Below, in pieces: positions 1-62,070 of a stretch of DNA of 64,000 nt. Positions within the stretch are counted from its first letter, which is position 1, and every line of letters starts with the position of its first letter. This stretch comes from Candidatus Poribacteria bacterium (GTDB taxonomy: Bacteria; Poribacteria; WGA-4E; WGA-3G), in contig OZ240248.1 of the NCBI GenBank assembly GCA_965198235.1, forward strand, positions 960,001-1,024,000. The letters run 5' to 3'. The notes under the pieces were generated by a model, which saw only the letters and a program-made list of their open reading frames with translations, was not told where the DNA came from and did no database searches. Position numbers and translations under genes: made by a program.

Positions 1-633
1 GGCAAGTCTGTCTCCCACAGCAGACCAAGAAGGATAGTATTGCCAAATCAGTGCTTTCTTGGGTAGCGGTTGTTCCTGCGCTCGTGTCTGGACGTTGATA
101 AATGTAAGTTGAGACGCGAATGGCTGGTCTACAGAGTAGGCAATTTCAGTGCCATCCGGCGACCATGAGGGATACCAGCCTTTCGCAATATGTTCATCCT
201 CTTGTTCTCCAAGGGGCGCAATGTGGATATCAGAATTAAGATTACCCAACTTCGCGTTCACATAAGCGATGTGTTTGCCATCGGGCGACCATGTTGGATT
301 GGTTCTATAAATTTTCGTTTTTCTCTTGAAGACACGTCGAACGTTGGTTCCATCTGGGTCCATCAGGTAAAGGTCTCGAACACCCCCGCGATCGGAGATG
401 AAAAGAATCTTTTCGCCCGTAGGTGACCAGACGGCTTGCAGATCATTTCCAGGATGTTGTGTTAGTCTCACCTGTTCGCTGCCATCTGGGTTCATGGTGT
501 ATACTTCTCTGTTTCCGTCGCGTGTAGAGGTAAACAGGATTTTAGGGGTCGTTGGTGCTTTTGCGAAAAGTGGAAAAACGTTCGCACACAATAGCATCAC
601 ACTGATGATGTAAAAGACGAGTGGATGTTTCAT
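1..633 (-). CDS. TolB-like PD40 beta-propeller secreted protein, 3' end outside window
   Basis: Not in the ORF track; hand-translated from ATG 633 with GGAGG SD: MKHPLVFYIISVMLLCANVFPLFAKAPTTPKILFTSTRDGNREVYTMNPDGS...AVWSPTG...PTWSPDG...PSWSPDG; paralog of 1160..2128. Confidence 0.85.
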   Translation of the reverse strand, partial: MKHPLVFYIISVMLLCANVFPLFAKAPTTPKILFTSTRDGNREVYTMNPDGSEQVRLTQHPGNDLQAVWSPTGEKILFISDRGGVRDLYLMDPDGTNVRRVFKRKTKIYRTNPTWSPDGKHIAYVNAKLGNLNSDIHIAPLGEQEDEHIAKGWYPSWSPDGTEIAYSVDQPFASQLTFINVQTRAQEQPLPKKALIWQYYPSWSAVGDRLA

Positions 634-1159: not shown

Positions 1160-2128
1160 TTAGTTCTGTGTTTTCAGTTTCCCCCACGTGGTCGTCAAAA
1201 GGGACGGCTGGGGTGAGACCGGCAAAGCAAACGCGGGATCGAACCAATTCGCGCGGAAGTTATCACCCCGGTGTGTGAGCTTTTCTGGGACACCACCGTC
1301 CAAAGCGATTTTGAAGAGTTGTCTGAAATCACCAACCCACTTACTGTAAATGAGTTCATTCCCGTGCGGTGACCAAGTAGGGTTATACGCTGACGCGTCA
1401 TCTCCAACATCAATAATCTTCCTGAATCCACTACCGTCTCGGTTCACAACATGGATACCCATAGTGTCCCCTACTTGCCTACCAGCCCAAGAAAAGGCTA
1501 TCTGAGCACTATCGGGTGCCCAGGCAGGACCAAGCATCCGTATCTTCCCCGGAATCAGTTCCTCTTCTACATGCGTTTGTGGATTGATAATCTGGACCCT
1601 GGACTTCGACAATCTGAGATTTCCGTTGTCAGCCCAAGCAAACTCGCCTGCCATAAAGGCTATCTCAGAACCGTTGGGAGACCACGCAGGCCATAAGCCT
1701 TTTGCAAGTTCTTCCTCATCTTTTCCGTCACTTGAGGCGGTGTAGATAGAGAGTGTGTGAAATCGGTGATAAGCAAGTGCCTTTCCATCAGGTGCCCACG
1801 TTGGAAACTCTCTCCCTATTAATTTTTTGAATACCTGACGCACATTCGTTCCATCTGGATCCATAAGGTAAATATCCTCTATCCCGTCTCGATCCGAGGT
1901 GAAAAGGATCTGTTCACCTGTCGGCGACCAGACAGGCGAGGAGTCCTTGGCACGGTGCTGAGTTAAGTTTATCTGATCAGAGCCATCCGGGTTCATGATA
2001 TAAATCTCAAAGTTGCCATCCCGCCGTGATGTAAATACGACTTTGACAGTTTCCGGGGCTTTTGCGAGAACAGCGGAGAGGGGAGCAAAGATAAGGAATA
2101 TGCTAAGCACAGAACATAAGCGTTTCAT
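1160..2128 (-). CDS. TolB-like PD40 beta-propeller secreted protein with C-terminal PVSP...LTTTWGKLK tail
   Basis: Signal peptide MKRLCSVLSIFLIFAPLSAVLA; FTSRRDGNFEIY; repeated P-x-W-S/A-P-D/N-G; GGAGG SD favours ATG 2128. Confidence 0.9.
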   Translation of the reverse strand: MKRLCSVLSIFLIFAPLSAVLAKAPETVKVVFTSRRDGNFEIYIMNPDGSDQINLTQHRAKDSSPVWSPTGEQILFTSDRDGIEDIYLMDPDGTNVRQVFKKLIGREFPTWAPDGKALAYHRFHTLSIYTASSDGKDEEELAKGLWPAWSPNGSEIAFMAGEFAWADNGNLRLSKSRVQIINPQTHVEEELIPGKIRMLGPAWAPDSAQIAFSWAGRQVGDTMGIHVVNRDGSGFRKIIDVGDDASAYNPTWSPHGNELIYSKWVGDFRQLFKIALDGGVPEKLTHRGDNFRANWFDPAFALPVSPQPSLLTTTWGKLKTQN

Positions 2129-2238
2129 GATGCTTTCCTCCATAGCGTCTACTATAGAAAGTAGGGTTGGCACGGGATATACTTTTTTTTTATCGGCGAT
2201 TGGCTGTGATTGACATCCTTGGTATGCATAGACATATC

Positions 2239-19140: not shown

Positions 19141-19980
19141 TTAATGCTCTGATTTTACGCGTGCCCACACCGTTGTCAAACGACCTTCTGGTGACACAGG
19201 CGTAAATCCAAAGAGTTTCCCAAGTCCCTCGCTCATGATGTCATTGACATCGGCTTCACTTAAAGCGGTATTGAAAACAGCAACATCATCCATGAGACCC
19301 CATCCGGGTCGCTGATCCACCATACCACCAATCTGGAGTGACTGTCCCGTCAATCCAAAAACACCACCCGTATTGGATTGTGCATCAACTTTGCCATCTA
19401 TATAGGCTATCATCTTCTTTCCATCATAAGTGAAAGCGATGTGATGCCATTTATCGTCGTTGACGAGCGTTGGACCCGAAACCCATGCCGGTGCGAGTTG
19501 TCCACTGCCGATTTCAACCTTACCGTGACCGCCGCCTCGTCCGGGTCCAAAGATATTCAGCAGACACGTATATTGAAAGTTAATGATGGCATGGTCGTCG
19601 TTACAGCAACCGCCCAAGACGACTTTCTTCTTTTTCTTGAGTTTCACCCACGTCGTCGTGGTATATTTCTCAGCACAACTGTCCAAACTTTTTGAAGTCG
19701 GGACCATAGCGACTTGGAATTCGTCGTCCCCGGAGAGACTCAATGCCCCATCGAATTTTCCATCATCTACCAATTCGGCACCTTTCAGCAATTCAGCATC
19801 ATTGCCGTTTTTGGTAGAATCGGGAGACATATCTTTGTTAGTGACCTCATCAAAGAGCCATACGCCAACGATGCTTTTTGCATCAATTGCCGCATCGCTC
19901 ACAGGTGCAAATATCACTGGGATAGCCATTAAACAAACTATTCCCAGAATAGACAGTTTTCGCAAAACAATTTCCTCCAT
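19141..19980 (-). CDS. Secreted LamG/ConA-like jelly-roll protein with C-terminal PVSPEGRLTTVWARVK tail
   Basis: Signal peptide; VGVWLFDE, GKFDGAL, DDKWHHIAFTYDG, YIDG, GLMDDVAVFNTALS. Confidence 0.9.
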   Translation of the reverse strand: MEEIVLRKLSILGIVCLMAIPVIFAPVSDAAIDAKSIVGVWLFDEVTNKDMSPDSTKNGNDAELLKGAELVDDGKFDGALSLSGDDEFQVAMVPTSKSLDSCAEKYTTTTWVKLKKKKKVVLGGCCNDDHAIINFQYTCLLNIFGPGRGGGHGKVEIGSGQLAPAWVSGPTLVNDDKWHHIAFTYDGKKMIAYIDGKVDAQSNTGGVFGLTGQSLQIGGMVDQRPGWGLMDDVAVFNTALSEADVNDIMSEGLGKLFGFTPVSPEGRLTTVWARVKSEH

Positions 19981-20108
19981 CGTTCAAAATATTCATTATT
20001 TTATCTTAACGGTGCGAAGATGTCAATACAAAAAAGATGTGCAGCTTCACGCTGAATCTGCTAAAATAGACGGAAGAAGTCAACAAACAATTATGGGAGG
20101 AGATACAC

Positions 20109-20873
20109 ATGAAAAGTCTAACAGGTTTGATGCTTTCAGTGAGCATTTTTTGTTATTTCGGTGTTGCTGGCGAACTGAAAGGTGCCACCGCTGAAGCGAT
20201 AGGTGTATGGCTCTTTGATGAAGGCAATGGCAATATTGTCAAAGACGCATCAGGGAACGGACACGACGGCGAGATTATCGGCGAGGTGGCGTGGGTTGAC
20301 GGAAAATTTGAGTCCGCGCTCGAATTTGATGACGGGCATGTCCTTGTGCCACATGAAGATGTTATGAACCTCAGACAGTGGACGATGACAGCATGGATAA
20401 AAGTCCCTAAGATTGTCGAGCCTTACCAAGTGATCGTTGGCAAAGAAACGTGGCCAAACCGAAACTATACGATGTGGATTCGTCCTGGTGTAATGACGTT
20501 TGGGTTTACGCTCCCTGCGGGCGCGCAAGACCTGCAGGTGGGCAGTAAAGTTGTCACTGACAATAAGTGGCATTTCGTCGCAGGTGTATACGACGAAAAG
20601 AATCTCATCCCTTACGTTGATGGCGAACAATTTAATCCACGCGCAGCCGCTGGAAAACCCGCAACGAGTAACGCACCATTGATTATAGGTGCCCAAGGAC
20701 CCGATGGTAAAAACGGACCCTTGAAAGGTATCATTGATGCGGTCGCTGTTTATGACACAGCATTGGATGAAGATGAACTCGCTGAAGTGATGGAGAGTCT
20801 CACGAAACAATTTCAAGCAGTGGAAGTAACGGGAAAATTAACTGTGACGTGGGGACATCTTAAAGAGAGATAG
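20109..20873 (+). CDS. Secreted LamG/ConA-like jelly-roll protein with C-terminal AVEVTGKLTVTWGHLK tail
   Basis: GGAGG SD; IGVWLFDEGNG, DASGNGHDG, GKFESALEFD, WHFVAGVYD, GIIDAVAVYDTAL. Confidence 0.9.
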   Translation: MKSLTGLMLSVSIFCYFGVAGELKGATAEAIGVWLFDEGNGNIVKDASGNGHDGEIIGEVAWVDGKFESALEFDDGHVLVPHEDVMNLRQWTMTAWIKVPKIVEPYQVIVGKETWPNRNYTMWIRPGVMTFGFTLPAGAQDLQVGSKVVTDNKWHFVAGVYDEKNLIPYVDGEQFNPRAAAGKPATSNAPLIIGAQGPDGKNGPLKGIIDAVAVYDTALDEDELAEVMESLTKQFQAVEVTGKLTVTWGHLKER

Positions 20874-20900
20874 CGTTTTTAGTAGTTTTCAGTTAACAGT

Positions 20901-20955
20901 TTTAACCATCAACTCGCCTCCGTTATAAATGTTAAAGCACGAGTTGATGGTTAAA
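20901..20955. repeat. Family D hairpin
   Basis: TTTAACCATCAACTCG-loop-CGAGTTGATGGTTAAA, perfect 16-bp arms. Confidence 0.85.
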
Positions 20956-21084
20956 GTTAAACACATTGAGGCAGGTCTGTTTTCGGTTACCGCCACGCGT
21001 ACATCTCCCGATAACTATTTCCACTAACGACTGAAGAGTTTATACAGCACCTAAGACACTTCTATTAGCAGTGCTAACTGAAAT

Positions 21085-21196
21085 TAACCAGAAACCCTCG
21101 TGAAACGAAATTAGGTTTCCTTAAATGGCATAATTTTGCTTCGCAGTGAGAATGCTTTACATTTGGAACGATGCACGATGGACGATCATTTAAAAA
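21085..21196 (-). repeat. Family B repeat with long nested mini-insert (21111-21163), upstream of the sprA-like gene
   Basis: Reverse complement: TTTTTAAATGAT...CATCGT-TCCA[AATGTAAAGCATTCTCACTGCGAAGCAAAATTATGCCATTTAAGGAAACCTAA]TTTCGTTTC-ACGAGG. Confidence 0.8.
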
Positions 21197-21353
21197 ACTT
21201 ATGTAAACAGAAAAACCGAATTTGTCGTTTGCAATCAAGATTCAATCTTAAATTCCGTATTACTGCAAACAGACAGCTTCCATAAGGCTTTAGCAACGCT
21301 GCGATCTTAGCATCCATGGAAACGCAGTAAATACGAAAAAATCAGGAATATAC

Positions 21354-24300
21354 GTGCAGATACATTTTTTGTCGAAATTTGTAGACCAGTTAACCTTAAT
21401 AAAAAGGCAGAACCTGCTGTTAAAAACTGGGATTATTCTTATCATCGTCCTCTGTTCAACCTCTGAAGTTGTCGTAAGTCGTATTGCTGAAGAAGAGACC
21501 GAACCCAAAAAGCAAACGCCAACAGAACCCGCAACCCCTGACAATCGCTCTACCGTTCCTGATTCTGGCGAGCCCACAACACCACCCAAAAATCAACGTT
21601 ACACCGGCTTTGGATTATCCACCCGCAACCCCTTCGACAACGATAGCAAATCAAAGCACTTCATTTGGCAAGACGAACAGGAACAAATCGAGGTTCCTGA
21701 CCAAGCAGAGGCCGAAGACCTCCTCATACAACCTTACCTGGACAGTCTACGACGCTGGCGGAATCCCCCCTATTTAACCGATCTCAGCAAACTTTATAAT
21801 TGGAAACCGAAGCCGAAGCGCGATGAAAAAGGCATTGCCCTCCCGATGGATTCCAATCTCAGGATAACAGGCTTACAATCTGTAACCGTAGAGGCGAACA
21901 AAACCCACTACTTCGGCGAAGGGGACCTGAATCGATACGGCGGCTATGGTTATGGCGGCGGCTACGGCGGCTACTCATCAGGACTTGACTTGGGACTCAC
22001 CTCGTCTTATGGTTACGAAGACTTCGGCTATAGCAGCAGTGGCTTCGGTGGTGGAGGCTACGGTTCAGGGTATGGGAGCGGCTACAGCAGTTATGGCTCA
22101 GGCTACGGTTCAAGTTATGGTGGTTATAGCGGTGGATATGGTAGTGGTGGTGCACCGCGAGCGACAGGATTTAATTTGCGTCAGATACAGCAATTCGGTC
22201 TTCACGGTCGTGTGGGAAAACGGACGCATATCGCTGTAGATTATAGTGCTGGCGGTAGTGGTTTCGGTAGTGGGGGATATGGCGGGGGATATGGCGGATA
22301 CGGCGGGGGTTACGGAGGTGGATACGGCATCGGCGGCACAAAGGAACAGAAGATTAAAATCTGGTACGAAGGCACACCGGAAAGTATTATAAAAACTATC
22401 TCCTTTGGCGACATCACCCTCAGTTTGCCGAACACCCGTTTTCTGAACATCAACCGGAATCTGTTCGGACTTGAAGGCGTTTTTGAATGGAAAAACACCC
22501 GTCTTACGGCGTTCGGTTCTCGAAGTAAGGGGATACGCGAGGTGCGCACCTTCCGTGGACAGTCGCGGCGCGCTGGCGGCGGCTACGGTTATGGACCGCG
22601 CGGGATTCAGATACCGGATATCAACTACGTTAAAAACCGGTTCTATCACATCCACACAGATGAGGACAGATTCCTGCATGACGCATACCTCCCCATCAAA
22701 TCAGGGAGCGAGCAAATTTTCATCGACGACGGTGTTGTAGGGAACAATCAGGGGGGCAAACGGACGAGTCGAGGCTACTTTAACCCACAATTCTCTGGTC
22801 AGGACTACAATATTGACTACGAAACCGGTGAAATAGAATTCCTATCTCCGATTTCTGCAAACTATACCATCGTTGTTGCGTATGAATACTTAGGAGATGG
22901 CGGTGGCACCGTTGGTAACACTGAAAAGGTCTTTGTTGATGAAAACGACGACGGAAGACTTGACGAAGAAGGTGAGGAAATCGGCTACGTAGTGCTAAAA
23001 GAGAAGGGACTTCGCGGTACAGAGGCAACGCACGTTTATAGTCTCGGCAACCGTAACATCAATCCACGCGATTTCACACTCACACTCCTCCGACAAGGAC
23101 AGAGCGACACCTTTCAGACGAATACCCGCTCCGTCCCGTACATCGAAATCTTTGAGTTGGACCAAAACAGTGACGGTATTGTGGATGCACAGTTTATAGA
23201 CTACGACAGAGGTTTGCTCCGTTTCCCGACAACAAATCCGTTTCAAATCGTAGACCCAAGCCATCCATATTACGCCTATCGCGATTCGCTCAGCAACACC
23301 GATATCTATCTCGAAGGTGTCCGAACAGATGCCCAAATCTACACAATTATTGCGGACTACGCGTATCAATCAGAAACGTACAACGTAGGCTTGTTTGTGA
23401 TCCCAGACAGCGAGACGGTCCGATTGAACGGACAAGTCTTGACTCGCGATACCGACTATATGATGCTTTATGAGGTCGGGACCATCCGATTCTTCAGACA
23501 ACTCGACGAGTTCGATGAGATCGTTGTGGAATTTGAAAAGACCCCTTTTGGCGGTTCATCACAACAAGCTGTAGCCGGCGTCTGGTTAGAGTATACGCAT
23601 AAACCGAAATCCAAGTCTGAGAGAGAACAGAGCCTTGAGGATAGATTCAATCGGTTAGGTGGCATCCAAACGATGGACTCAGATATGCTTGGTGAAGGAA
23701 CGGATGCCTTCGGTCAGGGACTGTCAGGCGGACTTCAACGGAGGAGCAGAGGTTTCGGGGGTAGTTCTCGCCGCGGTAGAGGCGGTTTCGGGGGTGGATT
23801 CGGCGGCAGTAGATTTGGTGGAGGCTATGGCAGCTACAGCAGTTTAGGAGGTCGCTCGCGAAGCTACTCCGGCAGTTATGGCGGCGCGATGAACTATTTC
23901 AACCCCGTTTTTCAAAAAGGATTTTCGCTCTCAACGGGTTATATTCTGAACACCGGACAAAAACCAGCGGAAGTACCAGATGTGAATAGCGTTCCAAACC
24001 GCTTACAAGCGTTCAACATAAACACGAGTTTTGGAAGAGAGTTTAACGTTGCTGGTATTTTAAACCTATTGCCCTTTATTAACATAAGAAATCTCCCGCT
24101 CTCACTTGACTTCAGTGGAGAAGCGGCCTATTCACATAACAACCCAAATAGTATTGGAGTCGCGCTCATTGATAGCATGGAAGGAGCAAAGGAATCAACG
24201 ACCGTGCCGACATTGAAATACAATTGGAAGCCAAGCAGTCTGCCGCACGTATCTGAGAGTGAGCCAACAACTCCTGGAGATGCCGCTTACCGTGTTATAC

Positions 24301-27300
24301 CGACCGACGAGAATAGAGCGATTTTTAACGTTGTGCTAAAAGATAAAAACGAAACGGAAGCAATAGGCAACTACATGCGGAACCGAGACGTGCCAGCCTC
24401 GTCAATTCAACCGCTCTCCCTCTCGACCGAAGAACGCCTCATTATGGAACTCGGCTACAATTTTACAGACGTGGTCGCCGAGTGGGGAGGCCTTTCAAAT
24501 GGCCTCTCCGCATCCGGGGTAGACTATTCGGAACGCAGCTTCGTTGAAATCTGGATGCGCGTCCAAGGCGACGACAATGTGACACTACATCTGAACCTTG
24601 GGGTAGTGAACGAAGATGTAGATGCCGATGAACGATTGGATAGTGAAGATCTTCCAGAAACGCTAACAGATACAAATGGAGACCGGAGCATCGATGCATT
24701 GGATTTAGATCTCGAGAATCTCTCACACATCGATCGCTATCGTGGGAACGGTGCCCTCGATACAGGCGAGGACGTAGGATGGGGGCTCAACGGTCCGCTT
24801 GAAAGAACATCTATCGGCGTAGGCAACCAGATTCTGGACAGCGAAGATCTCAACGGTGACGGTGTACTTGACAGTATAGATGCATATTTTGAGGTTGCAA
24901 TACCACTGAATGAAATTCCGAAAGAATGGGTTAAAAGCAAAAATGCAAACGGTTGGATGTTCCTCAGCATTCCACTCTCTAAATTTACGCCAGCAGGTTC
25001 CCGCCTGCCCAGTCTCGTTTTTGTGCAACACTTCCGATTCTGGCTAAGCAAAAACGGACCCGGCAACGTAGAAGGTTTATTGCAATGGGCGGATATTGAA
25101 ATTGTTGGCAACAAATGGAAACAGGGGATTATAACTCGGTCAAGTTCCCAGCCTACCATCGAATCCATAATTGACAACCCAGCACTCGCCTCCACCGGAG
25201 AAACCTTGTCAACCAGTACAATTGTGGAAGACACATTGGAAAAATTCATCGTCGGCACGAGGGATAACTTCAGTTATGATGCATATCAAAGTGCGTATCT
25301 GGATATTGAAGATAACGAGCTCTTCAAAAAATTACATCCATTCACAGCCACTTCACTCGGTTTTCAAACACAACAGCAACGTGAACAGACACTTAGTCTC
25401 GAATATTACCTCTTTCCCGGCTCCTACGGTGTCACCTCGAAACAATTGAAAGGCTTAACACAAAGTGAAGGGCAAGATTTCAGCAAACACGATACACTCC
25501 GATTTTGGCTCTATGGTGACAAAAGCGATACAACCTTCGTTTTACAACTCGCACCAACTGTCCGAACCGGCTACCGTAGTTCCTTCTATAGTTCAGATCC
25601 GTTTGTCAATCAGACCCAACAGGAACAAAACATCAACGTTTTCGAGAATCTAACAGACTACTATGAATATACAGTCCCAATCGACTTTGAGGGTTGGAAG
25701 TTAATTGAGATTGATTTGCAGGACCTGCGCAGAAATAACTATCCGGATGTGAAAGAAACTGATTCCACGCTTCCTTCAGCCGAATCGGTTGTTGCGGAAA
25801 CGAATGGCGGCGAAGTCGCAATTAACACTACTTCCGAAAGCGCAGACGATGCACCAGATGGACAACCCGACGGTTTCACGATTAGAGGTGGGAATAGCAC
25901 GCGACTTTCTATCAAAAATATCGGCGGCATCCTTCTGGGTATACGTAACGACACTGGACGCGAAATCAGCGGAGAAATCTGGGTAAACGAGATTCACCTC
26001 GGCGATCCGCTTGTACGTGCAGGATGGGCACGCCGTGGAAATATGGCGGTGTCCCTCGGCAGAATCGCTAAATTACGCGGCGGCTACGCAAGCCAAGATA
26101 AAGATTTTGAAAGTGGTGCGGGTGAAGTCGGTAGACAACGGCTCTCCTCACGCGGGTATAGCACGACAAACAACGACTTCAATATCGATGCAGATGTCAC
26201 TCTATTCCCGTGGCTGCCGATCCGGTACGGGGTCCGACACCAAAACACGGAAACCGAGAGCCAGCGCGGAAGTTACAGCAGCTTCCAGAGTGGGAAAAGT
26301 GAAATCCGCACTCGAGATATTTCTGTGCAGTTCACTCAAAACCCGTATCCGAATCTCGGTTTCGCTTACAACTACCAAGATTTTTGGAATGAACGCCAAG
26401 GCACGCAAATTAGCCACCTCTATACGGGTAGCTTTCGGTATGAACTCGGTTCAAAACTCGGGGTCAACGCGCAGTACCGGCACGAAGACATACTCGCCAA
26501 ACCCGAAACCGCAACAGAGACATCTTCGACTTCAACATCCTACTATAGTTACGGCTACGGTAGAAATCGAGACGAAAAAACAGATAGCGGCACCATAACA
26601 TTTAATATCAGCCCGACAAATATCTTCAGTCTGAACCCCAGTTACGATGTCCGTCGGACGCTTGAAAGACGGGAAGAGCAAGACTCCAGATCCCCACTTG
26701 CAGGTAATATAACGACAGAACCGGAAACCCCCGAATCCGAAGAAGAGAAAACAGCCGAAGATGTTAAATGGTCAATTGCTCAGCGAGAACATCGGTTGTC
26801 GCTTACCCCACGCTTAAACCGGGATCTGCTCGGCATGCGCCCCACCGTAACAAGCCGGATGAGTTTTCGTGAGAACTGGTTCCGTGAACAGAAAAACGCT
26901 TCACTCAACGGAAACGTCAGCCTCGGCGTGAACCTCCGCATTCAAAAATGGTTCGGATGGTTCCTCAGAGAGAAAACACCTGAAACCGAAAACGATTCAA
27001 ATGAATCTCAAGATGGAACAGCACCGCCTTCAGAAAGTAGTCCCATAGAATCGTTGAAAGGTGGCGAAGGTACAGAAATAACCGAACAATTGCGGGAAAA
27101 TGGTATTGACGAAACACAAATCCAAGAATTGGAAGAGAATTCTTCGACTTGGATCGAACGCGATAAAGGTGAGTTGCCGTCTGCGGGCACGGAAACCGGA
27201 AATAGCGGAACACAAGAGGGTGCAGTGCCAGAGGTCAAGGACGGTATCCTGCATCGAATTCTGAAAAGTTTCACTGTCAGCACCAACGCAAACTTCACCG

Positions 27301-28073
27301 CTACCGAATCGTATCGGCAACTTGCCTCTGGGCTATCAATGTTAGAAATCTATTCGCTTGCGGACGATGCAAAGGAACGGACGAACTCTCGGCGTAGCAA
27401 TCGCTATACAGTACGTAGCTCGGTAGACCCGTGGAATTGGGCATCTTTCGGAACAAACGTCAGCACTTCCGATAGTTTCCGGAAAAGTTCAGGTACAACC
27501 TACATACAGAACACCAATGCCTACGGAGCCGACGTAAAACTGAAAGCGCGAGAAACTTCCAGTTTCCAACTTCGCTATAGTTATACAACACGAAATAACG
27601 GGAGGCTGGATGCTATACTCGGTGACAGCAAAGCACACACGCCTTCACTCAGTTGGATACAGACATGGGGTAAAGAGACTCGGACAGCGTTGGGTGTACG
27701 TACGACACTTCGAGACCAGCTACGGAGCGGTATTCAGAGCAACGCGCTCATCGTCACTCCAAACTTGAGTATTGACTACAGATACCGTACAGAAAATGGC
27801 ATACGGATACCGTTTTTCGGTAGAATCCCCCTGAAACACGATCTCGAGTTAACCAATACTCTCTCTTGGGCTATCCGAAGAGAGCAGTACGGCGCGAACC
27901 TCGAGGAGCGTTCAGAAAGGTATGAGACGACCTTGCGCATCGGTTACAAAGTCAGCACCCATATTACAGCGAATTTCCATCTCGGCCTCAGCTACAACCA
28001 TGATAGGGTTGAAGAGGGTAGAGATTTCCTCTCCATCGCGACTGCCCTCACCGTCCGCGGCGAAATCCAATAA
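21354..28073 (+). CDS. sprA: SprA/Sov-like large outer-membrane translocon (type IX secretion-like)
   Basis: 2239 aa; SprA-like order of motifs: QQFGLHGRVG..IAVDY, KIKIWYEG..ESIIKTISFGDITLSLP..LFGL..RLTAFGSRSKG, YSLGNRNI, SETVRLNGQVLTRDTDY, ALIDSMEG, DYSERSFVEIW, LNLGVVNED, WVNEIHL; amphipathic beta-strand C-terminal third; start uncertain. Confidence 0.8.
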   Translation: MQIHFLSKFVDQLTLIKRQNLLLKTGIILIIVLCSTSEVVVSRIAEEETEPKKQTPTEPATPDNRSTVPDSGEPTTPPKNQRYTGFGLSTRNPFDNDSKSKHFIWQDEQEQIEVPDQAEAEDLLIQPYLDSLRRWRNPPYLTDLSKLYNWKPKPKRDEKGIALPMDSNLRITGLQSVTVEANKTHYFGEGDLNRYGGYGYGGGYGGYSSGLDLGLTSSYGYEDFGYSSSGFGGGGYGSGYGSGYSSYGSGYGSSYGGYSGGYGSGGAPRATGFNLRQIQQFGLHGRVGKRTHIAVDYSAGGSGFGSGGYGGGYGGYGGGYGGGYGIGGTKEQKIKIWYEGTPESIIKTISFGDITLSLPNTRFLNINRNLFGLEGVFEWKNTRLTAFGSRSKGIREVRTFRGQSRRAGGGYGYGPRGIQIPDINYVKNRFYHIHTDEDRFLHDAYLPIKSGSEQIFIDDGVVGNNQGGKRTSRGYFNPQFSGQDYNIDYETGEIEFLSPISANYTIVVAYEYLGDGGGTVGNTEKVFVDENDDGRLDEEGEEIGYVVLKEKGLRGTEATHVYSLGNRNINPRDFTLTLLRQGQSDTFQTNTRSVPYIEIFELDQNSDGIVDAQFIDYDRGLLRFPTTNPFQIVDPSHPYYAYRDSLSNTDIYLEGVRTDAQIYTIIADYAYQSETYNVGLFVIPDSETVRLNGQVLTRDTDYMMLYEVGTIRFFRQLDEFDEIVVEFEKTPFGGSSQQAVAGVWLEYTHKPKSKSEREQSLEDRFNRLGGIQTMDSDMLGEGTDAFGQGLSGGLQRRSRGFGGSSRRGRGGFGGGFGGSRFGGGYGSYSSLGGRSRSYSGSYGGAMNYFNPVFQKGFSLSTGYILNTGQKPAEVPDVNSVPNRLQAFNINTSFGREFNVAGILNLLPFINIRNLPLSLDFSGEAAYSHNNPNSIGVALIDSMEGAKESTTVPTLKYNWKPSSLPHVSESEPTTPGDAAYRVIPTDENRAIFNVVLKDKNETEAIGNYMRNRDVPASSIQPLSLSTEERLIMELGYNFTDVVAEWGGLSNGLSASGVDYSERSFVEIWMRVQGDDNVTLHLNLGVVNEDVDADERLDSEDLPETLTDTNGDRSIDALDLDLENLSHIDRYRGNGALDTGEDVGWGLNGPLERTSIGVGNQILDSEDLNGDGVLDSIDAYFEVAIPLNEIPKEWVKSKNANGWMFLSIPLSKFTPAGSRLPSLVFVQHFRFWLSKNGPGNVEGLLQWADIEIVGNKWKQGIITRSSSQPTIESIIDNPALASTGETLSTSTIVEDTLEKFIVGTRDNFSYDAYQSAYLDIEDNELFKKLHPFTATSLGFQTQQQREQTLSLEYYLFPGSYGVTSKQLKGLTQSEGQDFSKHDTLRFWLYGDKSDTTFVLQLAPTVRTGYRSSFYSSDPFVNQTQQEQNINVFENLTDYYEYTVPIDFEGWKLIEIDLQDLRRNNYPDVKETDSTLPSAESVVAETNGGEVAINTTSESADDAPDGQPDGFTIRGGNSTRLSIKNIGGILLGIRNDTGREISGEIWVNEIHLGDPLVRAGWARRGNMAVSLGRIAKLRGGYASQDKDFESGAGEVGRQRLSSRGYSTTNNDFNIDADVTLFPWLPIRYGVRHQNTETESQRGSYSSFQSGKSEIRTRDISVQFTQNPYPNLGFAYNYQDFWNERQGTQISHLYTGSFRYELGSKLGVNAQYRHEDILAKPETATETSSTSTSYYSYGYGRNRDEKTDSGTITFNISPTNIFSLNPSYDVRRTLERREEQDSRSPLAGNITTEPETPESEEEKTAEDVKWSIAQREHRLSLTPRLNRDLLGMRPTVTSRMSFRENWFREQKNASLNGNVSLGVNLRIQKWFGWFLREKTPETENDSNESQDGTAPPSESSPIESLKGGEGTEITEQLRENGIDETQIQELEENSSTWIERDKGELPSAGTETGNSGTQEGAVPEVKDGILHRILKSFTVSTNANFTATESYRQLASGLSMLEIYSLADDAKERTNSRRSNRYTVRSSVDPWNWASFGTNVSTSDSFRKSSGTTYIQNTNAYGADVKLKARETSSFQLRYSYTTRNNGRLDAILGDSKAHTPSLSWIQTWGKETRTALGVRTTLRDQLRSGIQSNALIVTPNLSIDYRYRTENGIRIPFFGRIPLKHDLELTNTLSWAIRREQYGANLEERSERYETTLRIGYKVSTHITANFHLGLSYNHDRVEEGRDFLSIATALTVRGEIQ

Positions 28074-39709: not shown

Positions 39710-39794
39710 CGAAATCCGCCGGTGCTGCCGTCCCAAGTTTCCACTTTTCAGTTTCAAGTCGTCCCTTTTTCAGTTTTACGGTGCACCTCAAACT

Positions 39795-40062
39795 TGTGGA
39801 TAACTTGTGGATAACTTGTGGATAACTATGTAATTCTCTGTTGACAAATTGTGGATAACTTGTGGATAAGTCAAAAATTTTCCGTGTCTGTGGATAACTT
39901 GTGGATAAGTCAAAAAGTTATCCACAAGTTATCCACAGGTACTTGTCAATGGTGGTAAGGGTTCAGACGAGTTATCCACTTATCCACAGCCCCTACTACT
40001 GCTACTACAATTTAATATATATATATATCGTAATTAGTACAAGTATTAGGAATTGTGGATAA
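39795..40062. other. Origin of replication (oriC)
   Basis: 11 perfect TTATCCACA boxes (39795, 39806, 39817, 39850, 39861, 39889, 39900, 39918, 39929, 39980, 40054); box-GCCC-CTACTACTGCTACTAC DnaA-trios (39993-40008); AT-only tract 40009-40028. Confidence 0.95.
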
Positions 40063-40146
40063 CTCGGAAATTATCAAACAAGAAAAGTTGTCAAACAAAG
40101 AAATTTATCAAACAGGACTCAAGGAAATTTTCTGCATCTAAAACAA

Positions 40147-41499: not shown

Positions 41500-41686
41500 T
41501 TGGTCCCTGGGCACCGCTTCAAATGTAAAGCAAAGACAAATTATGCCATTTAAGGAAACATAATTTCATTGCGCGGTGGCATCCGGCTAAGTCAAGTGCC
41601 ACCCGAAACCTAAAGCAGGGCATGAATTCACCGAAAACCGTTGCAGAACGAAGTGGAGCAACCCTCAGAAGTCAATAATTTAAAAA
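41490..41686. repeat. Inverted pair of family B repeats, first with nested insert 41522-41563; supplies the recF stop
   Basis: TTTTAAATGATTGG...CACCGC-TTCA[insert]TTTCATTGC-GCGGTG; reverse copy ends ATAATTTAAAA. Confidence 0.8.
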
Positions 41687-55767: not shown

Positions 55768-58700
55768 ATGCAATTATACTTAAAACAGATCGGAACGGAG
55801 CACAAACCTGTGTATGCTCTATTCAGGTTTGGTATTATACTGGGTATCCACGTTCTCACCTTTGTAGGAGGGGTTTGTAACCCCGATTCCTTCGCAGAAA
55901 TTACCCAAACTACATCGACAGACGGAATCACCCTCCAATTCACCTTGCCGGAACTGACTATATCTGAGGTAATCCGCGATAATATCCGCTACCAAGGGGT
56001 GCGTTACGCCGACTGTCACTTCACCGGCGAACCGGGAAACCCCAAAGTTCCAGTCACGCGCCTCATGTTAGGTATACCGGCGGCAGCTACAATTGAAGCA
56101 GTCGATGTTTCTGCTGCGTCTGTCGAGACGCGCACCGGTGTACGCCTCGTTCCAGTTCCGATTTTCGATATTCATGAACTCAATTCACAGCACTCGGCTT
56201 CGCAGCACTGGTCGGAAAGCGGGAGCGCATATCAGTTAAAGGGAAATGGCTCGTTTTCTGGAAACCGCTCATACCCTGGACATCCTCTTGCCCGGATTGT
56301 ACGTGAAGGCTATATTCGTAGTCAACGTGTTATTGCATTAGCACTCTATCCTGTGCAATATCTGCCGAACACTCGCCAACTGCGTTTGTATTCACGCTTC
56401 ACAGTGAACATTCGTTTCTCCTATACAAAACAGGGAGGGCCGCTAACAGCGCGAGGGAGCAGCTCACAAATTTTTCCTGACCAAGGAATAACTGTGCCAG
56501 AATCAGAAGTTTTTGAGCGTGCATTCTCACATCAACTCTTCAATGCTGAACAAGCCGCTCGCTTCCGCGCGCCCCGTCCACTGGTACCTACGGCACCAAC
56601 ACTCATTCCCAACGGAGGTCATGGAACACGCTATAAGTTGTTTATTCAAGAGACAGGTATCTACGCAGTGACAGCGGCATCTCTACAGAACGACTGGGGT
56701 GTAGATCTCATTGGTACGCATCCTGCGAGATTTCGACTCACGCAAGGAAATAGAGATGTTCCTGTTTACATCAGTGGTGCGGCAGATGGAAGTTTTGACC
56801 CGAACGATGCTATCTTTTTTCTGGGTCATAAGCCTAAAAATCGATATAGCCGTTGGAATGTCTATTGGCTCTCGATTGACAACAGGGGTCGCATTCCGAC
56901 GCGGGTGCCGCAGATTACCGTCAGTCCCACAGACCAAACAGCGACACAGGTTCCCACCTTCCGCTCTAAAGTGAATTTTGAAGAGGATTACCTGACGAGT
57001 AACCTCGAATTTGTCCATACGGAGACCGTTTCGCCCGGTGACAAGCACGGTTGGTTTGATGCCTTAGATTTCTGGTACTGGGACGGTATCAAAAATGGGG
57101 GCGATTCCGCCGAGATGCGTCTCGAATTTCCGCTTTATGATGTCGCAAAAAGTTTCGACCCGCCACGTATCTCCGTTGATTTGCAGGGCGGCACACCGGT
57201 ATCACATGAGATTTTAGTCGCTATTAATGGGGTCCGGATTGACTTTGCTAAGTGGGAACAGCAAGACACACTCACTATTGGACGTACCTTGCGCACTTGG
57301 GATACGCTCAAAGACAACGTCAAGGGACAGCAGAACGTGTTGTCTTTAGCCAGAGTTGACAGCAACGTTGATGAGGATACCACCCGATACCCATATCATG
57401 TCTACCTCAACCGTTTTTCTGTCGAGTATACTCGCCTCTTCCGAGCTGTTGCTGACGAGTTATGGTTCAGGTCGCCGACCGCCGATACGACCTCCCGGGA
57501 GCGGCTTCCCGGAGGGCGTAAACTCCAGTATAAAATTGAGGCGTTCCGTGAACCAGAGATACATATCTTTGAGACGGATGGCACCTATCTTACTGCCCAG
57601 ATGCAGGGTGTGAATGTCGAATTAGACGCAGCACGTTCTAATTCGTATAATGCACTTTTCCAAGTGCTTGATACCCGAAGCACACAATTTATCGCCGTTT
57701 CCAATGCGGCATTGCGTCAACCCGATCGCATTGATGTCGTTGCGCCCACAGACTTAGCGACTGCGGTGCACAGTGCTGATTATCTAATTGTGACACACCC
57801 TAACTTCCTATCTGCAGCACAAAGATTAGCAGCGTGGCGCACGACTCCTGGCGGTGGTGGATACCGCACGAAAGTTGTTACAACCGATGATATTTACAAC
57901 ACCTTTGGTGATGGTGGTGTTAGTCCGAAGGCTGTTAAGGCGTTTCTGAAGCACGCGTATCAGTCTTGGACGCCGCCAGCACTGACGTATGTCGTCCTGT
58001 TTGGCGATGGCACCTTCGATTTTCGCGGCATTGACACAGACATTTATGCTGAACCGCCTGAACTGACTGGGTACATTCCGACGCATTATATTCGAACTGA
58101 TTCCTTCGGACGGACCGCATCAGATCATTGGTATGCGACCGTCTCTGGACACGATGAATTCACCGATTTCTATATCGGTAGGCTCAGTGTTGAGACCGTA
58201 AACCAAGCTGATGCGGTTGCTGACAAGATCATCGCTTACGAACAGACACCACCCAACGGGGACTGGCGGAGAAGGATTATTGCTGTTGCTGACGACGAGG
58301 TTAGCAACTCTGGAGATTTTATCTTCAAGAAAAGCCTTGATGAAATAGCGAAAGATCACACCCGTCTTGGCTATGAAACGGTTGAGGTGTTCCTTGAAGA
58401 CGTTATCGACCAAGTGGAAGCACATCCGGCGGATTACCCAGGACTCTTGCCACAACGTGTTGCAAAAAATAAAATCATTGAGGCACTTGGAGAGGGTGCT
58501 GTACTCGCACAATATGCCGGACACGGGGGCAGGATCGTTTGGGCGCACGAAGCAATCTTTGATAATGCTTCCGTCGATCAAGTTGAGGAAACCACAAAGA
58601 TTCCTTTCATGTTAGTTCTCAGTTGTTACAACGGTTATTTCGACAAGCCAGGTGAACCGAGCATGGCAGAGAAGTTGTTACGCAAAGAGAGAGGCGGGAT

Positions 58701-61700
58701 CATCGGTATGTTAAGCGCGACTCGCCTCACCTATGGCAGCGGAAACGATGCTCTCAACCGTATCATCTTCGACATGCTCTTTAAACGGAACATCCGACAA
58801 CTTGGTCCCTTGAGTTTTGATTCAAAGGTTGAGCTGCTGATGACAGAGGGTACGGGTCAGATTGATATCATGATGGAATATACCCTTTTCGGAGATCCTG
58901 CCTTACAAATTGCGATCGCTAATGGTGAAATTCAACCTACTATCGAGACGAAAACAGTTGCGCCTGGGGATACCCTCCGAATTGCATCGGGGCATGTCCA
59001 GACTGCTACTTACGACGCGGCGAGCCGAACAAAACGTTTTGTTACCAATACCACTTTTAACGGCACACTCAGCGTCAAAGCTCTGTTTCCTGGGAAAACA
59101 GCCACTGCTCAGGGTGTTGCGGGTCCAGTTAAATACTACACTGGAGACGTAATTTTGACAAAGACACTCGCTGTTAACCGCGGTGCCTATCCTGCGGTGA
59201 CTTTCTCCGTCCCAAAAAATATTGCCAGCGGTGATGCCCATGTCGAGTACTATGCACAAAGTAATGCAACTGTCGCTGTCGGTGGCGACGGGTTTACTGT
59301 CAATATCCCAAAAATCCTTGATATTAAACCCGAATTAGTCGGTGAGGGCAAATTCCGTATCTCTGTTCAGGTTTCCGATGAAAAAGAGCAACTCTTCCTT
59401 GTCCTCTTGGACTGGCGCAACCCAGAAAGCCGGGAATGGGAGAAAGTGCGTTTTGTTCCTGCAGAGCCTCCGTTATCGGAAGATGGATGGTGGACGGTGC
59501 CTGAGCCTCTAAACGCGCCTATAGACGGTTCCCCTATCCGGTACAACCTTCAGGTCACGGATATAGATAACAATACGGTTACAAGTGAGAGGCTTCAGTA
59601 TTATCCTTACGTATACCCTAATCTTTCGATTGTGGAGGTCGACAGAACCAACAGGATTGGGTACGGCTACAACACCAAAACGGAGCAGTGGTACCTCTCG
59701 GCGGATGTGCAAATAGAAGGCGAAAGCATAAAGATGCCTATTGAAGTTGCTTTTTTCAGCGGCAATCCGGATGTTGACGATGACACGCTTGTTGACGACG
59801 ATGTAAATCTCCTCGGTACGACCCGCATCCAACCCAAAGACTGGGTGCCACGCACGCCGTTAGCGGACTCCAGTACAGGGAAAGATGTTTATGAACCGGA
59901 TCCGCTGAATACACTACCGATTGCAACCGCTACTTTAAATCTGCCTTCTGAATATAATGGAGGCCAGCTGCCTCTCGGCACACACGACATATTTGTCTAT
60001 ATTGATGTGACAGAGACTGAGGCGGATCAGCCGGGTAATGTCCTTGAAAACGATGAGGAAGATAATATCTCTTACCGACGACTCTTTGTCGATATGGGTG
60101 TTGTGGGAACGGTTGACCGAAGAACCAGAATTGCCAGTTTGGACCGGAACTGCGTTATTACTGTTCCCCCTGGTGGCTTCCGAGAAACAACAGTACTGGC
60201 AATCCGTTCCTTGGATGAACGCAAGTTTGCGGCTATAGAGACGGGTTCCCTTGATACTTCTACGAGATCTTCACCTAAGAGAATGTCCAAGCAGGCACCG
60301 CTTCCTGGGGTTGTCACCCACGGCTATGAAATCGTTATCGGCGATCAGTTATCAGCTGTCAGTGACAAGAACCTCTTAACTGAAAACCGAGAACCGAGAA
60401 CTGATAACTCCATTAAACTGACATCTCCGGTAGCGATCGATTTAAGTTTCGACATCGGTGCGCTTAGAACACAACTCACGCGAGAATTATTGGGCGGTAT
60501 GGAATCCGAGGAGACACCTTTAGAAGAGGAACCCAATGAATTGGGGGTTGCAGATACAATTAACACTGCTGTTGCATCCCGCGCACGTGAGTTGGGTATC
60601 TATATGTTTAACTCGACACTCGGAAATTGGACAAGGCTACCTTCCCAACAACTCACCGACGCTACAGGCGCGTTACAGCAACACACACATGTAACAAATG
60701 TGAGTCAAGAAAATGTTGGGGAAAGTGCTCTCCGCGATGTCGGTATCCAACCCGAAGGCGCACGGCCCGGCAAATACGTCCTCTTTTTCACAGGTCCTCA
60801 AACCTATCGGCTTTTCCTTGCCCCTTCGGTAGATGATACGCGAGCAGGAAACACCCAAGCCAAAACACCATTGGAAGTTATTGCATCTGCGGAGCAGCTT
60901 GCAAACTTTAGTACAGACATCCCGAACTTTAGACACGGCTTCTCACTTAATGTAGAACTCAATTTTGAAAAACCTTTGACATTCGGAGATGTCTTGACAT
61001 TCAACATAACTTCCCTTATACAGTCTGTGGATGTTGAAACCGATCTCGATACGCCTCAACAAGAGCAGCGTTGGTATGCCTCTGGATTCAGGGACACCAA
61101 CCAAGGCACGGGTACCGTCAGCTACATTGAACTTCTGCCGGACACCGCCATGCCCGAAGATAAGTGGATTATCTTCTTTCTTACAGACAGTCTTTTCCAG
61201 GTTGAAGGCGAGAGAACCGGTATTTTACGTTCCCAAACTGATGGAAACCAACCACTGCGTGGAACAGTCGAAGAACCTTTCTCATATAAGCCTTACGGCT
61301 TACGTCTTCAACTCACACAAGGTGAACGCTCCTTTGCTCCTGGGGATAGGTTCCGGTTTCAAACCCGATCCGTCGGTACCATTCGGGCTACGACGGATCG
61401 ACTTGGACCGATTACGCTGCTGTATACTGACGATACTGTGCCACCAGATATACAACTCACCATTGGCAATCAACAGCACTTTGTTCCGGGGGATGCAACA
61501 GATGCAGAACCCCTCATCGGAGCAACATTAACTGACCCGAGTGGGCTTGATTATCTCACCCGTCCGCTGTTGTTGGAAATTGGAGACGCATTCGGCGAAT
61601 ATGAACGTATCGATCCAGAGGCGTATCAGGTGACATATTATCCCGGCTCAAATCAACTCGTGTTGACATATCCGTCTCCTGAGCTTGAACCGCGGGAATA

Positions 61701-62070
61701 TGAGGTTCGCCTAACTGTGAGCGATGTCCATGGGAATACGGATACAAAAGACATCACATTTCGGGTCCATGACACCTTGCAGTTGCTATCGTTTCTCAAC
61801 TATCCGAATCCTTTTCCGCGTAAAACAACGCTCACCTGCGAATTAACAGCACCTGCTGACTCACTCGTTGTGAAAATCTATACGCTGAGTGGACGACTCA
61901 TCCGAGAATTCTCCATCCCAGCAACTCCTGGGTTTCTTATGGTGGAATGGGATGGCAGAGATGCTGATGGAGTTGAGGTTGCAAATGGCGTTTACTATGC
62001 TAAACTCCGAGTCCAGCGCGAGGGTGAAAAGGACGTAACCGAAATACTTAAAATGATGAAACTCCGTTAA
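55768..62070 (+). CDS. porU: PorU-like C25 (gingipain-family) cysteine peptidase with C25 propeptide and C-terminal FlgD-Ig/T9SS-like domain
   Basis: GEPGNPKVP propeptide; ADYLIVT, YVVLFGDG, SDHWYA, IGRL, YAGHG (His), LSCYNGYFD (Cys), YTLFGDPA; tail NYPNPF...KIYTLSGRLIRE...WDGRDADG..VANGVYY. Confidence 0.85.
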   Translation: MQLYLKQIGTEHKPVYALFRFGIILGIHVLTFVGGVCNPDSFAEITQTTSTDGITLQFTLPELTISEVIRDNIRYQGVRYADCHFTGEPGNPKVPVTRLMLGIPAAATIEAVDVSAASVETRTGVRLVPVPIFDIHELNSQHSASQHWSESGSAYQLKGNGSFSGNRSYPGHPLARIVREGYIRSQRVIALALYPVQYLPNTRQLRLYSRFTVNIRFSYTKQGGPLTARGSSSQIFPDQGITVPESEVFERAFSHQLFNAEQAARFRAPRPLVPTAPTLIPNGGHGTRYKLFIQETGIYAVTAASLQNDWGVDLIGTHPARFRLTQGNRDVPVYISGAADGSFDPNDAIFFLGHKPKNRYSRWNVYWLSIDNRGRIPTRVPQITVSPTDQTATQVPTFRSKVNFEEDYLTSNLEFVHTETVSPGDKHGWFDALDFWYWDGIKNGGDSAEMRLEFPLYDVAKSFDPPRISVDLQGGTPVSHEILVAINGVRIDFAKWEQQDTLTIGRTLRTWDTLKDNVKGQQNVLSLARVDSNVDEDTTRYPYHVYLNRFSVEYTRLFRAVADELWFRSPTADTTSRERLPGGRKLQYKIEAFREPEIHIFETDGTYLTAQMQGVNVELDAARSNSYNALFQVLDTRSTQFIAVSNAALRQPDRIDVVAPTDLATAVHSADYLIVTHPNFLSAAQRLAAWRTTPGGGGYRTKVVTTDDIYNTFGDGGVSPKAVKAFLKHAYQSWTPPALTYVVLFGDGTFDFRGIDTDIYAEPPELTGYIPTHYIRTDSFGRTASDHWYATVSGHDEFTDFYIGRLSVETVNQADAVADKIIAYEQTPPNGDWRRRIIAVADDEVSNSGDFIFKKSLDEIAKDHTRLGYETVEVFLEDVIDQVEAHPADYPGLLPQRVAKNKIIEALGEGAVLAQYAGHGGRIVWAHEAIFDNASVDQVEETTKIPFMLVLSCYNGYFDKPGEPSMAEKLLRKERGGIIGMLSATRLTYGSGNDALNRIIFDMLFKRNIRQLGPLSFDSKVELLMTEGTGQIDIMMEYTLFGDPALQIAIANGEIQPTIETKTVAPGDTLRIASGHVQTATYDAASRTKRFVTNTTFNGTLSVKALFPGKTATAQGVAGPVKYYTGDVILTKTLAVNRGAYPAVTFSVPKNIASGDAHVEYYAQSNATVAVGGDGFTVNIPKILDIKPELVGEGKFRISVQVSDEKEQLFLVLLDWRNPESREWEKVRFVPAEPPLSEDGWWTVPEPLNAPIDGSPIRYNLQVTDIDNNTVTSERLQYYPYVYPNLSIVEVDRTNRIGYGYNTKTEQWYLSADVQIEGESIKMPIEVAFFSGNPDVDDDTLVDDDVNLLGTTRIQPKDWVPRTPLADSSTGKDVYEPDPLNTLPIATATLNLPSEYNGGQLPLGTHDIFVYIDVTETEADQPGNVLENDEEDNISYRRLFVDMGVVGTVDRRTRIASLDRNCVITVPPGGFRETTVLAIRSLDERKFAAIETGSLDTSTRSSPKRMSKQAPLPGVVTHGYEIVIGDQLSAVSDKNLLTENREPRTDNSIKLTSPVAIDLSFDIGALRTQLTRELLGGMESEETPLEEEPNELGVADTINTAVASRARELGIYMFNSTLGNWTRLPSQQLTDATGALQQHTHVTNVSQENVGESALRDVGIQPEGARPGKYVLFFTGPQTYRLFLAPSVDDTRAGNTQAKTPLEVIASAEQLANFSTDIPNFRHGFSLNVELNFEKPLTFGDVLTFNITSLIQSVDVETDLDTPQQEQRWYASGFRDTNQGTGTVSYIELLPDTAMPEDKWIIFFLTDSLFQVEGERTGILRSQTDGNQPLRGTVEEPFSYKPYGLRLQLTQGERSFAPGDRFRFQTRSVGTIRATTDRLGPITLLYTDDTVPPDIQLTIGNQQHFVPGDATDAEPLIGATLTDPSGLDYLTRPLLLEIGDAFGEYERIDPEAYQVTYYPGSNQLVLTYPSPELEPREYEVRLTVSDVHGNTDTKDITFRVHDTLQLLSFLNYPNPFPRKTTLTCELTAPADSLVVKIYTLSGRLIREFSIPATPGFLMVEWDGRDADGVEVANGVYYAKLRVQREGEKDVTEILKMMKLR
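60334..60408. repeat. Family C repeat in frame inside the C25 gene
   Basis: GTTATCGGCGATCAGTTATCAGCTGTCAG...CCTCTTAACTGAAAACCGAGAACCGAGAACTGATAAC encodes VIGDQLSAVSDKNLLTENREPRTDN. Confidence 0.8.

Follow-up and report, generated by a model that had tools for sequence, protein, structure and literature searches.

A short C-terminal peptide of Poribacteria and several related uncultured phyla as a putative export or surface-anchoring tag

The closest described counterpart of the system treated here is the T9SS (type IX secretion system) of Bacteroidota, which among the complete genomes of 2013 was found only in Bacteroidetes (Abby et al., 2016, PMC4793230). In Poribacteria, an earlier study saw domains resembling T9SS C-terminal domains (CTDs) but no machine: in its passages, Por-secretion sorting domains (TIGR04183-like) are reported on WD40 and other repeat proteins, the Por structural genes were not found, and a short tail is not mentioned (Kamke et al., 2014, PMC3909097). 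In Prevotella intermedia, two lengths of sorting signal occur in one cell, the short CTDs having 40-55 residues, three beta strands and the motifs B, D and E, and modelling on PorV like the long CTDs (Ye et al., 2025, PMC11969387). The window analysed here is a stretch of 64,000 nucleotides (G000:C1:960001-1024000) from the genome of a Candidatus Poribacteria bacterium (G000; 5.17 Mb, 96.3% complete), and Ca. Poribacteria were also the named homologues of its SprA, PorV and LamG proteins. It encodes a T9SS-like core together with several proteins that end in the same short C-terminal peptide (the tail). This peptide, shared by Poribacteria and several related uncultured phyla, is probably an undescribed tag for export or surface anchoring.

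A type IX-like core and a recurrent C-terminal tail

Profile searches revealed SprA, PorV-family and PorU homologues outside Bacteroidota, as a preliminary description made from the window alone had proposed, and every open reading frame (ORF) that it named was recovered where it had placed it (Table 1). The 2239-residue protein that it took for a SprA-like translocon matched TIGR04189 (E 3.5e-49; at 167 bits it falls short of the 200-bit cut-off), and hhalign aligned a profile of 24 Poribacterial-type SprA proteins with one of 11 Bacteroidota-type SprA proteins over 1067 columns (probability 99.9, E 8e-32), leaving the C-terminal third unaligned; a sequence search of the PDB with the protein gave no match. 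The adjacent PorU-like/PorV pair was borne out by matches to NF033707 and NF033709, both below the cut-offs. The PorU-like protein aligned with 6ZA2 (E 3.5e-36), including the His/Cys motifs and the CTD. Its His919 (YAGHGG) and Cys953 (LSCYNG) line up with the corresponding PorU motifs, which we take to be the catalytic dyad, and it ends in an ordinary FlgD-Ig-type CTD (about 61770-62067). The AlphaFold2 model of the 368-residue PorV protein is a beta-barrel whose best PDB matches are PorV chains (8GL6_F, E 7e-11; 6H3I_F). The genome contains three PorU-like C25 sortases (C1:1015768, 2769248 and 3175971; 26-30% identical), all of which keep the His/Cys motifs and the CTD, and 15 PorV-family genes, of which 7 are above the cut-off. 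Among the Poribacteria sampled, SprA was present in 150 of 151, the one miss being an 81%-complete genome, and PorU was found in all 10 tested, each with at least two PorU-like sortases. NCBIfam already names PorV/PorQ-family proteins in Poribacteria; annotation of the components thus exists, although the literature searched gives no description of the system.

This conserved SprA/PorV/PorU core comes with no detectable GldL, GldM or GldN. GldM and GldN were each found in one of 50 genomes, namely the Bacteroidia positive control, the set consisting of this control, 11 Poribacteria, 36 genomes from the scan for cognate tails described below and two SprA-less genomes. GldL was not found in G000 and, among five genomes, was above cut-off only in the control. 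These searches covered GldL, GldM and GldN; GldK was not searched, and very divergent homologues could escape detection. For these three, the earlier remark that no motor genes were visible in the window extends to the 96.3%-complete genome. PorP gave no match in G000 and was above cut-off in the control, while PorZ gave only weak partial or CTD-region matches in G000. The likeness to the Bacteroidota T9SS lies in the three homologues, the intact PorU motifs, the adjacency of porU and porV, the 33 cargo proteins of CTD type and the architecture of signal peptide plus C-terminal tag. The differences are that GldL, GldM, GldN, PorP and PorZ were not found, that the three window components score below curated cut-offs, that PorU and PorV-family genes occur as 3 and 15 paralogues, and that most putative cargo carries a short tail (183 proteins against 33 with a CTD). 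The machine probably works like a T9SS yet, with no GldL, GldM or GldN detected, departs from that type in its motor.

The tail had been noticed on one TolB-like and two LamG proteins of the window, and the genome-wide analysis extended this to 183 C-terminal copies. The pattern W[GAS]x[LIVMF]K ends 186 of the 20,356 ORFs of G000, where 3.9 would be expected. A hidden Markov model (HMM) seeded on 137 of these ORFs recovered the 183 copies at C-termini, none in control 40-mers and none internally at 12 bits or more. The consensus of the 173 copies scoring at least 12 bits reads L-(A/P)-V-(E/D/S)-P-x-G-K-L-(A/T)-T-T-W-G-x-(L/I)-K followed by 1-5 residues, with W and K near-invariant. The passengers belong to 41 unrelated families, led by LamG (88), TolB-like (17), DUF1080-like (12) and ankyrin (7) proteins, and Pfam matches among 37 tail proteins were of LamG, PD40, DUF1080, ankyrin, lamin-tail, Kelch, F5/8, CBM9 and NPCBM types. 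A hydrophobic N-terminal stretch, called by a simple hydropathy heuristic and not by SignalP, was present in 158 of 163 full-length tail proteins as compared to 776 of 2744 background ORFs; a further transmembrane segment was seen in one of the 163 and a lipoprotein-like start in two. Among the listed homologues of the 254-residue LamG protein, 111 of 120 keep the tail. The strictly C-terminal position, the lack of internal copies, the unrelated families and the N-terminal signals together indicate that the tail behaves like a signal.

On sequence comparison the tail belongs to no CTD family. No Pfam or NCBIfam family, whether of CTDs or of envelope-binding domains, matched the tails (38 plus 50 tails scanned); a search of the ESM Atlas with the tail returned only unnamed clusters, under 0.9, and a PDB search with the tail profile returned three weak matches (E 0.04-0.4), none spanning the whole motif. 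AlphaFold2 modelled the domain of the 254-residue LamG protein confidently and its tail as a helix at low pLDDT (50-58). The tail has a net charge of about +1.8 and no transmembrane segment, the best 12-residue hydropathy within the last 30 residues averaging 0.69.

The tripartite LPXTG, PEP-CTERM and GlyGly-CTERM signals are comparable in being short, strictly C-terminal, carried by unrelated exported proteins and basic at the end. The tail could also serve a different system for export or anchoring that these phyla possess but that has gone unrecognised, running parallel to the T9SS-like one. Such a system would fit the lack of a receptor found, of a genomic link to porV or porU and of sequence likeness to CTDs. 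Against it, signals of the tripartite type need the transmembrane helix that the tail lacks, and no candidate machinery was seen beside the sprA/porV genes, although no genome-wide search for tail-tracking genes was made. We regard this explanation as very improbable.

Tail and conventional CTD within one genome

The preliminary description had presented the tail as a miniature CTD that substitutes for the conventional one, and neither part of this view was supported. An ordinary FlgD-Ig-type T9SS CTD was identified with a genome-built profile on 33 G000 proteins, PorU included, which had been overlooked; none of them carries a tail, so that tail and CTD are mutually exclusive and the tail can be no more than a second class of signal. 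The genome also has 26 matches to PF13860, and several CTD proteins pass TIGR04183; type B CTDs are sometimes labelled FlgD_ig (review PMC11611037). Structurally, no CTD model matched the tail. The two classes of protein differ in size: the tail proteins are small (median 264 residues; 11 of 183 above 500) and the CTD proteins large (median 925 residues; 30 of 33 above 500).

Both endings occur on the same domains. One domain is 69-71% identical between the tail protein C1:53351 and the CTD protein C1:1528423 of G000. An Ig domain of the 'LPVEL' type gave 39 hits in four other genomes (top 30 loci of 97 matches): directly after it came a CTD in 22, a tail in 4 and other sequence, mostly weak FnIII repeats, in the remaining 13. 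Five lamin-tail-family proteins of G000 were found, with a profile of the domain minus the tail, to have the Ig domain directly followed by the Poribacterial tail. The same Ig domain precedes the cognate tail in a Bacteroidota protein described below, and the alignment, in which the two tails differ by an insertion of 3-5 residues, ties the two forms by homology. Judged from these alignments, the tail occupies the CTD position after a common Ig domain.

The start of the tail was compared with the known PorU cleavage site, X/(GSA)(VLI), for example D/SVED or N/GVED (Gorasia et al., 2015, PMC4560394), and with the P. intermedia consensus PT/GI, where cleavage likewise falls in a flexible linker at a small and then an aliphatic residue (Ye et al., 2025, PMC11969387). 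The counts rest on this literature motif, an earlier linker expression written after seeing the sequences not being relied on. Of 175 Poribacterial tails, 88 have the (GSA)(VLI) dipeptide in one fixed register, against a background of 4.3% per position, and in 62 of 175 it is followed by D or E, against 0.6%. In the CTD linkers of tail-rich genomes, (GSA)(VI)(DE) was present in 11 of 26 windows as compared to 22 of 284 controls. The pattern is suggestive of PorU-type cleavage at the tail start, not decisive for it.

The same observations bear on the possibility that the tail is a docking peptide, which the translocon would not read and which would fasten small binding proteins to a scaffold or carrier in the manner of dockerin and cohesin. 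The scaffold would be a CTD cargo protein or a T9SS subunit, mature proteins would retain the tail, and SprA would be linked to it only indirectly. This could account for the co-occurrence with SprA and agrees with the small tail proteins, the conserved W and K, the single-copy Ig-plus-tail protein of GldN-less Bacteroidota (see below), which has no obvious cargo function, and a D-x-N-x-D-G repeat, presumably dockerin-like, before the CTD of many G000 proteins. Docking would leave unexplained why the tail takes the CTD position after the same Ig domain, why it is absent from CTD proteins and never internal, and why a cleavage-type dipeptide stands at its start; the tail proteins would, besides, have to cross the outer membrane in some way. 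We consider docking unlikely, if worth keeping in view. As a separate observation, a gene in pieces at G000:C1:3635635-3637134, homologous to seven tail-bearing ankyrin-family proteins, ends in the repeat that we take to be dockerin-like and that precedes CTDs elsewhere in G000.

Distribution of the tail and weighing of its role

The tail was present in all 151 Poribacteria genomes of the sample, with 11 to at least 54 scored copies each. A cognate form, (S/T)TWGxIKxL(Y/F)R, was found in Eisenbacteria, Krumholzibacteriota, Latescibacterota, Zixiibacteriota, Fermentibacteria and others when GTDB was scanned at the DNA level with the pattern (S/T)TWGx(I/L/V)Kx(L)(Y/F)x-stop; the scan gave at least 125 stretches, 80 of them listed. 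Among 81 translations with the cognate tail, 76 were ORFs of 119-511 residues ending exactly at the motif, most of them with a signal-like start. Whole-genome searches covered 50 of the 80 listed loci, one per genome and suspected chance matches included. SprA was above cut-off in 46 of these 50 genomes, and the four SprA-less genomes had at most one tail match each; PorU was found in 48 of 50 genomes of an overlapping set, the two misses being SprA-less genomes. At least two cognate tails (strict pattern) were present in 40 of the 50 genomes searched for SprA, all 40 non-Poribacterial, and each of these had SprA above cut-off, in agreement with the tie between tail and translocon proposed at the outset. 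Among 191 multi-copy tail genomes (the 151 Poribacteria, with their one 81%-complete miss, and these 40), none was shown to be SprA-less. The pattern was hit in only 2 of 121 genomes of the phylum holding a Phycisphaera-labelled genome. Hits in L089 and L118 were dropped for not being ORF ends, those in L308 and L326 for having no such protein, and those in L072 and L126 because each was the only hit in a genome without SprA and lay on a contig of 2-4 kb that may be mis-binned. One Fermentibacteria protein (L131:1504-2061) combines a lipoprotein-like start with a cognate tail, which is unusual for T9SS cargo.

In 151 Bacteroidota genomes the cognate pattern occurred in 42, almost always once, as compared to 6 hits for a reversed-pattern control. 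GldN was present in 37 of the 151 and overlapped with the pattern in two genomes, both of which were discounted, one hit being an unrelated membrane protein and the other having no such ORF. The pattern was retained for 40 of the 114 GldN-less genomes, and all 40 have SprA; among ten tail-less GldN-less comparators, SprA was present in 7 and not in 3. Of 20 hits fetched, 18 belong to one protein of 130-160 residues consisting of a signal peptide, an Ig-like domain and V(K/R)RTWGSIKA(M/L)FR or a near variant. The five copies tested had no Pfam or NCBIfam match, and the Atlas clusters of the protein are mostly of Ignavibacteriota. It may be a component of the motor-less system that is new, or one of its core substrates. 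The protein is single-copy and unannotated in these GldN-less, SprA-positive Bacteroidota (L309-L325, L327, L106; e.g. L311:3681-4085), and its gene often lies just upstream of one that we take to be Maf-like. In a GldN-positive Bacteroidia genome, a membrane protein (L080:949-1533) ends in KSTWGQIKDLFR, which may be chance or a relic; its neighbours are presumably tsaE-like and alanine-dehydrogenase-like.

The association with SprA bears on the possibility that the tail is a periplasmic or envelope tag unrelated to the T9SS, that is, a basic peptide that binds peptidoglycan, lipopolysaccharide or membrane, or a mark for a tail-specific protease or chaperone, in which case the co-occurrence would reflect shared ancestry only. 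The relatedness of the tail-bearing phyla, the positive charge without a transmembrane segment, the TolB-like propellers among the passengers, the lipoprotein-like protein of L131 and the moderate amphipathicity of the cognate tails (moment 0.42 vs 0.31 for shuffled sequences) would all suit such a tag. In Poribacterial tails the moment barely exceeds that of shuffled versions (0.31 vs 0.29), and an amphipathic-helix reading is weak for them. The lack of a matching envelope-binding family, the swaps of tail and CTD on the same domains and the absence of a SprA-less genome among the 191, save the incomplete one, also argue against it. Taken together, an envelope tag seems to us quite unlikely.

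We favour, at a probability of roughly 60%, the reading that the tail is a second cargo signal of about 15-20 residues for a motor-less type IX-like system. Proteins would leave the cytoplasm by Sec through their heuristically called N-terminal signal. The folded, mostly single-domain cargo would then be recognised by its free C-terminal TWGx(L/I)K core, the candidate receptor being either a barrel of the PorV family that sits at the SprA gate or some other part of the machine, and would exit through SprA without the GldKLMN motor, of which GldL, GldM and GldN went undetected. One of the three PorU-like sortases might cut just before the motif of a small residue and Val, and the protein might be released or linked to a surface glycan. 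Large multi-domain cargo would use the ordinary CTD in the same cells, and the cell would gain a coat in which as many as about 180 lectin-like and binding proteins take part.

Several results weigh against this reading. Compared to the short P. intermedia CTDs, the tail is shorter (about 15-22 residues), has no motifs B, D and E and is predicted to be helical or disordered; the low-confidence AlphaFold2 model of the Poribacterial tail is a helix and not beta strands. In 55 of 175 Poribacterial tails Pro-(V/L/I) replaces the (GSA)(VLI) dipeptide, only 17 of 76 cognate tails have it at the two likely registers, and most CTD proteins of G000 have, by eye, no such motif in the 45 residues ahead of the CTD. 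PorZ, the A-LPS donor, was not found. SprA occurs without the tail in GldN-positive Bacteroidota and in 7 of the 10 tail-less comparators, and the tail-bearing lineages are kin, so that the co-occurrence counts express consistency and not independent events. The Ig domain is a member of a very large group of FnIII-like domains, common and mobile, which can shuffle among many partners (a profile built on the Ig-plus-tail alignment had 111,108 hits among 1.84 billion representatives, and FnIII repeat proteins swamped the result). Gene order was also rejected as evidence for a link between tail and sprA. The preliminary description had argued from two LamG genes directly upstream of sprA; their coordinates are right, but only the gene at 20109-20873 lies on the sprA strand, the other being divergent. 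No tail gene was near sprA at 20 other sprA loci (8 from Poribacteria and 12 others, up to 20 kb each). In G000, a tail gene lies no more than 2.3 kb upstream of 108 of the 1238 large ORFs, with two such genes in 15 cases. PorV-family genes are not linked to tail genes (3 of 15, with 4.4 expected). A complex prediction without controls of the tail with two PorV-family barrels, that of the window and that at G000:C1:3831533, scored 0.00 against a mark of 0.32 and speaks on neither side.

If the favoured reading of a second cargo signal is true, about 15-20 residues suffice to send a folded protein through the SprA channel without the GldKLMN motor, which bears on the minimal type IX signal and on the need of a motor for export. 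In a major sponge symbiont, the route taken by roughly 180 lectin-like and repeat proteins of each cell would also be named, and a short tag could serve surface display. The single-copy cognate-tail protein of Ignavibacteria-type Bacteroidota may offer a culturable test organism, as cultured strains of this group exist. What is new here is the spread of the tail to other phyla, the swap on the Ig domain and the link to GldN-less SprA; in the literature covered, by title and abstract opening, with few subscription papers and no supplements, neither the tail nor a motor-less T9SS in these phyla is described. A wider proposal, which we hold tentatively and at somewhat under even odds, is that a motor-less type IX system, perhaps the older form, spans Poribacteria, Eisenbacteria, Krumholzibacteriota, Latescibacterota, Fermentibacteria, Zixibacteria and GldN-less classes of Bacteroidota. 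It would use two cargo codes, large proteins bearing an Ig-like CTD and small ones a TWGx(I/L)K peptide of 12-20 residues, read by a dedicated PorV/PorU pair, and the Ignavibacteria-type Ig-plus-tail protein would be an unrecognised component or founding substrate, lost where GldKLMN is present.

Genes of the window and their neighbourhood

Table 1. Positions of the tail-bearing and machine genes in the window (aa, amino acids).
Feature	Position	Strand	Description
Fourth tail-bearing gene, 5' part	1..633	-	tail just outside the window; full gene G000:C1:959626-960633
TolB-like PD40 beta-propeller	1160..2173	-	337 aa as called; ends LPVSPQPSLLTTTWGKLKTQN, tail at 1163-1225
LamG protein (PF13385)	19141..19980	-	279 aa; divergent from the sprA-side gene; ends TPVSPEGRLTTVWARVKSEH
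Tail TPVSPEGRLTTVWARVKSEH	19144..19203	-	of the 279-aa LamG protein
LamG protein (PF13385)	20109..20873	+	254 aa; N-terminal hydrophobic signal; ends QAVEVTGKLTVTWGHLKER
Tail QAVEVTGKLTVTWGHLKER	20814..20870	+	starts with (G/S/A)(V/L/I) cleavage-type dipeptide
SprA/Sov-family outer-membrane translocon	21354..28073	+	2239 aa; Gly/Tyr/Ser-rich insertions; single gene in genome
PorU-like C25 sortase	55768..62070	+	2100 aa; NF033707 399.8 bits (cut-off 420)
PorV-family beta-barrel	62231..63337	+	368 aa; directly 3' of porU; NF033709 88.9 bits (cut-off 90)

In one relative (G045) the machine genes are linked to each other, porU-porV lying about 2.4 kb upstream of sprA. PorV-family genes were near CTD genes in 5 of 15 cases, with 1.25 expected; the observed number was reached in 2 of 300 shuffles. 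Of 8 PorV-family paralogues scanned, the one at G000:C1:3831533-3832657 matches the PorV model best over its full length, and it is kept by 41 of 41 Poribacteria; it, rather than the porV of the window, is a candidate for the PorV of the SprA gate. A tail-specific PorV paralogue was sought with a quick PorV tree, which was poorly resolved, and a tail-specific PorU paralogue was not shown, the match numbers of 1-8 counting pieces and 11 candidates being scored per genome. Contigs of sponge RNA libraries (four runs) cover the tail genes and, in three runs, all of sprA; such contigs cannot show transcription or its level.

The SprA protein has two long Gly/Tyr/Ser-rich low-complexity stretches of GYGGGYG type (window 21920-22350 and 23720-23910), which are kept across Poribacteria and are not in the aligned Bacteroidota-type profile. 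Some distant SprA orthologues (P0092-P0095, P0097, P0098) also have a LysM domain. In several non-Poribacterial genomes (L178-L186), sprA adjoins two genes that are presumably lptF/lptG-like and others that we take to be rimP-nusA-infB-like.

The stretch between the LamG gene and sprA (window 20878-21192) is partly matched by many unrelated contigs and looks like a small dispersed repeat. Relatives in two runs are without it (a 315-base skip), and another relative lacks the 3' part of the LamG gene besides this stretch. In the window, sprA and porU-porV flank a cluster of dnaA, recF, a DciA-like gene, gyrB and gyrA (38312-47536), a type of cluster that usually marks the replication origin. Other genes of the window include an ECF sigma factor fused to BNR/sortilin-type propeller repeats (2949-5903; 984 residues) and, with a score under the NCBIfam cut-off, a HepT-like RNase of a toxin-antitoxin pair (53701-54237).

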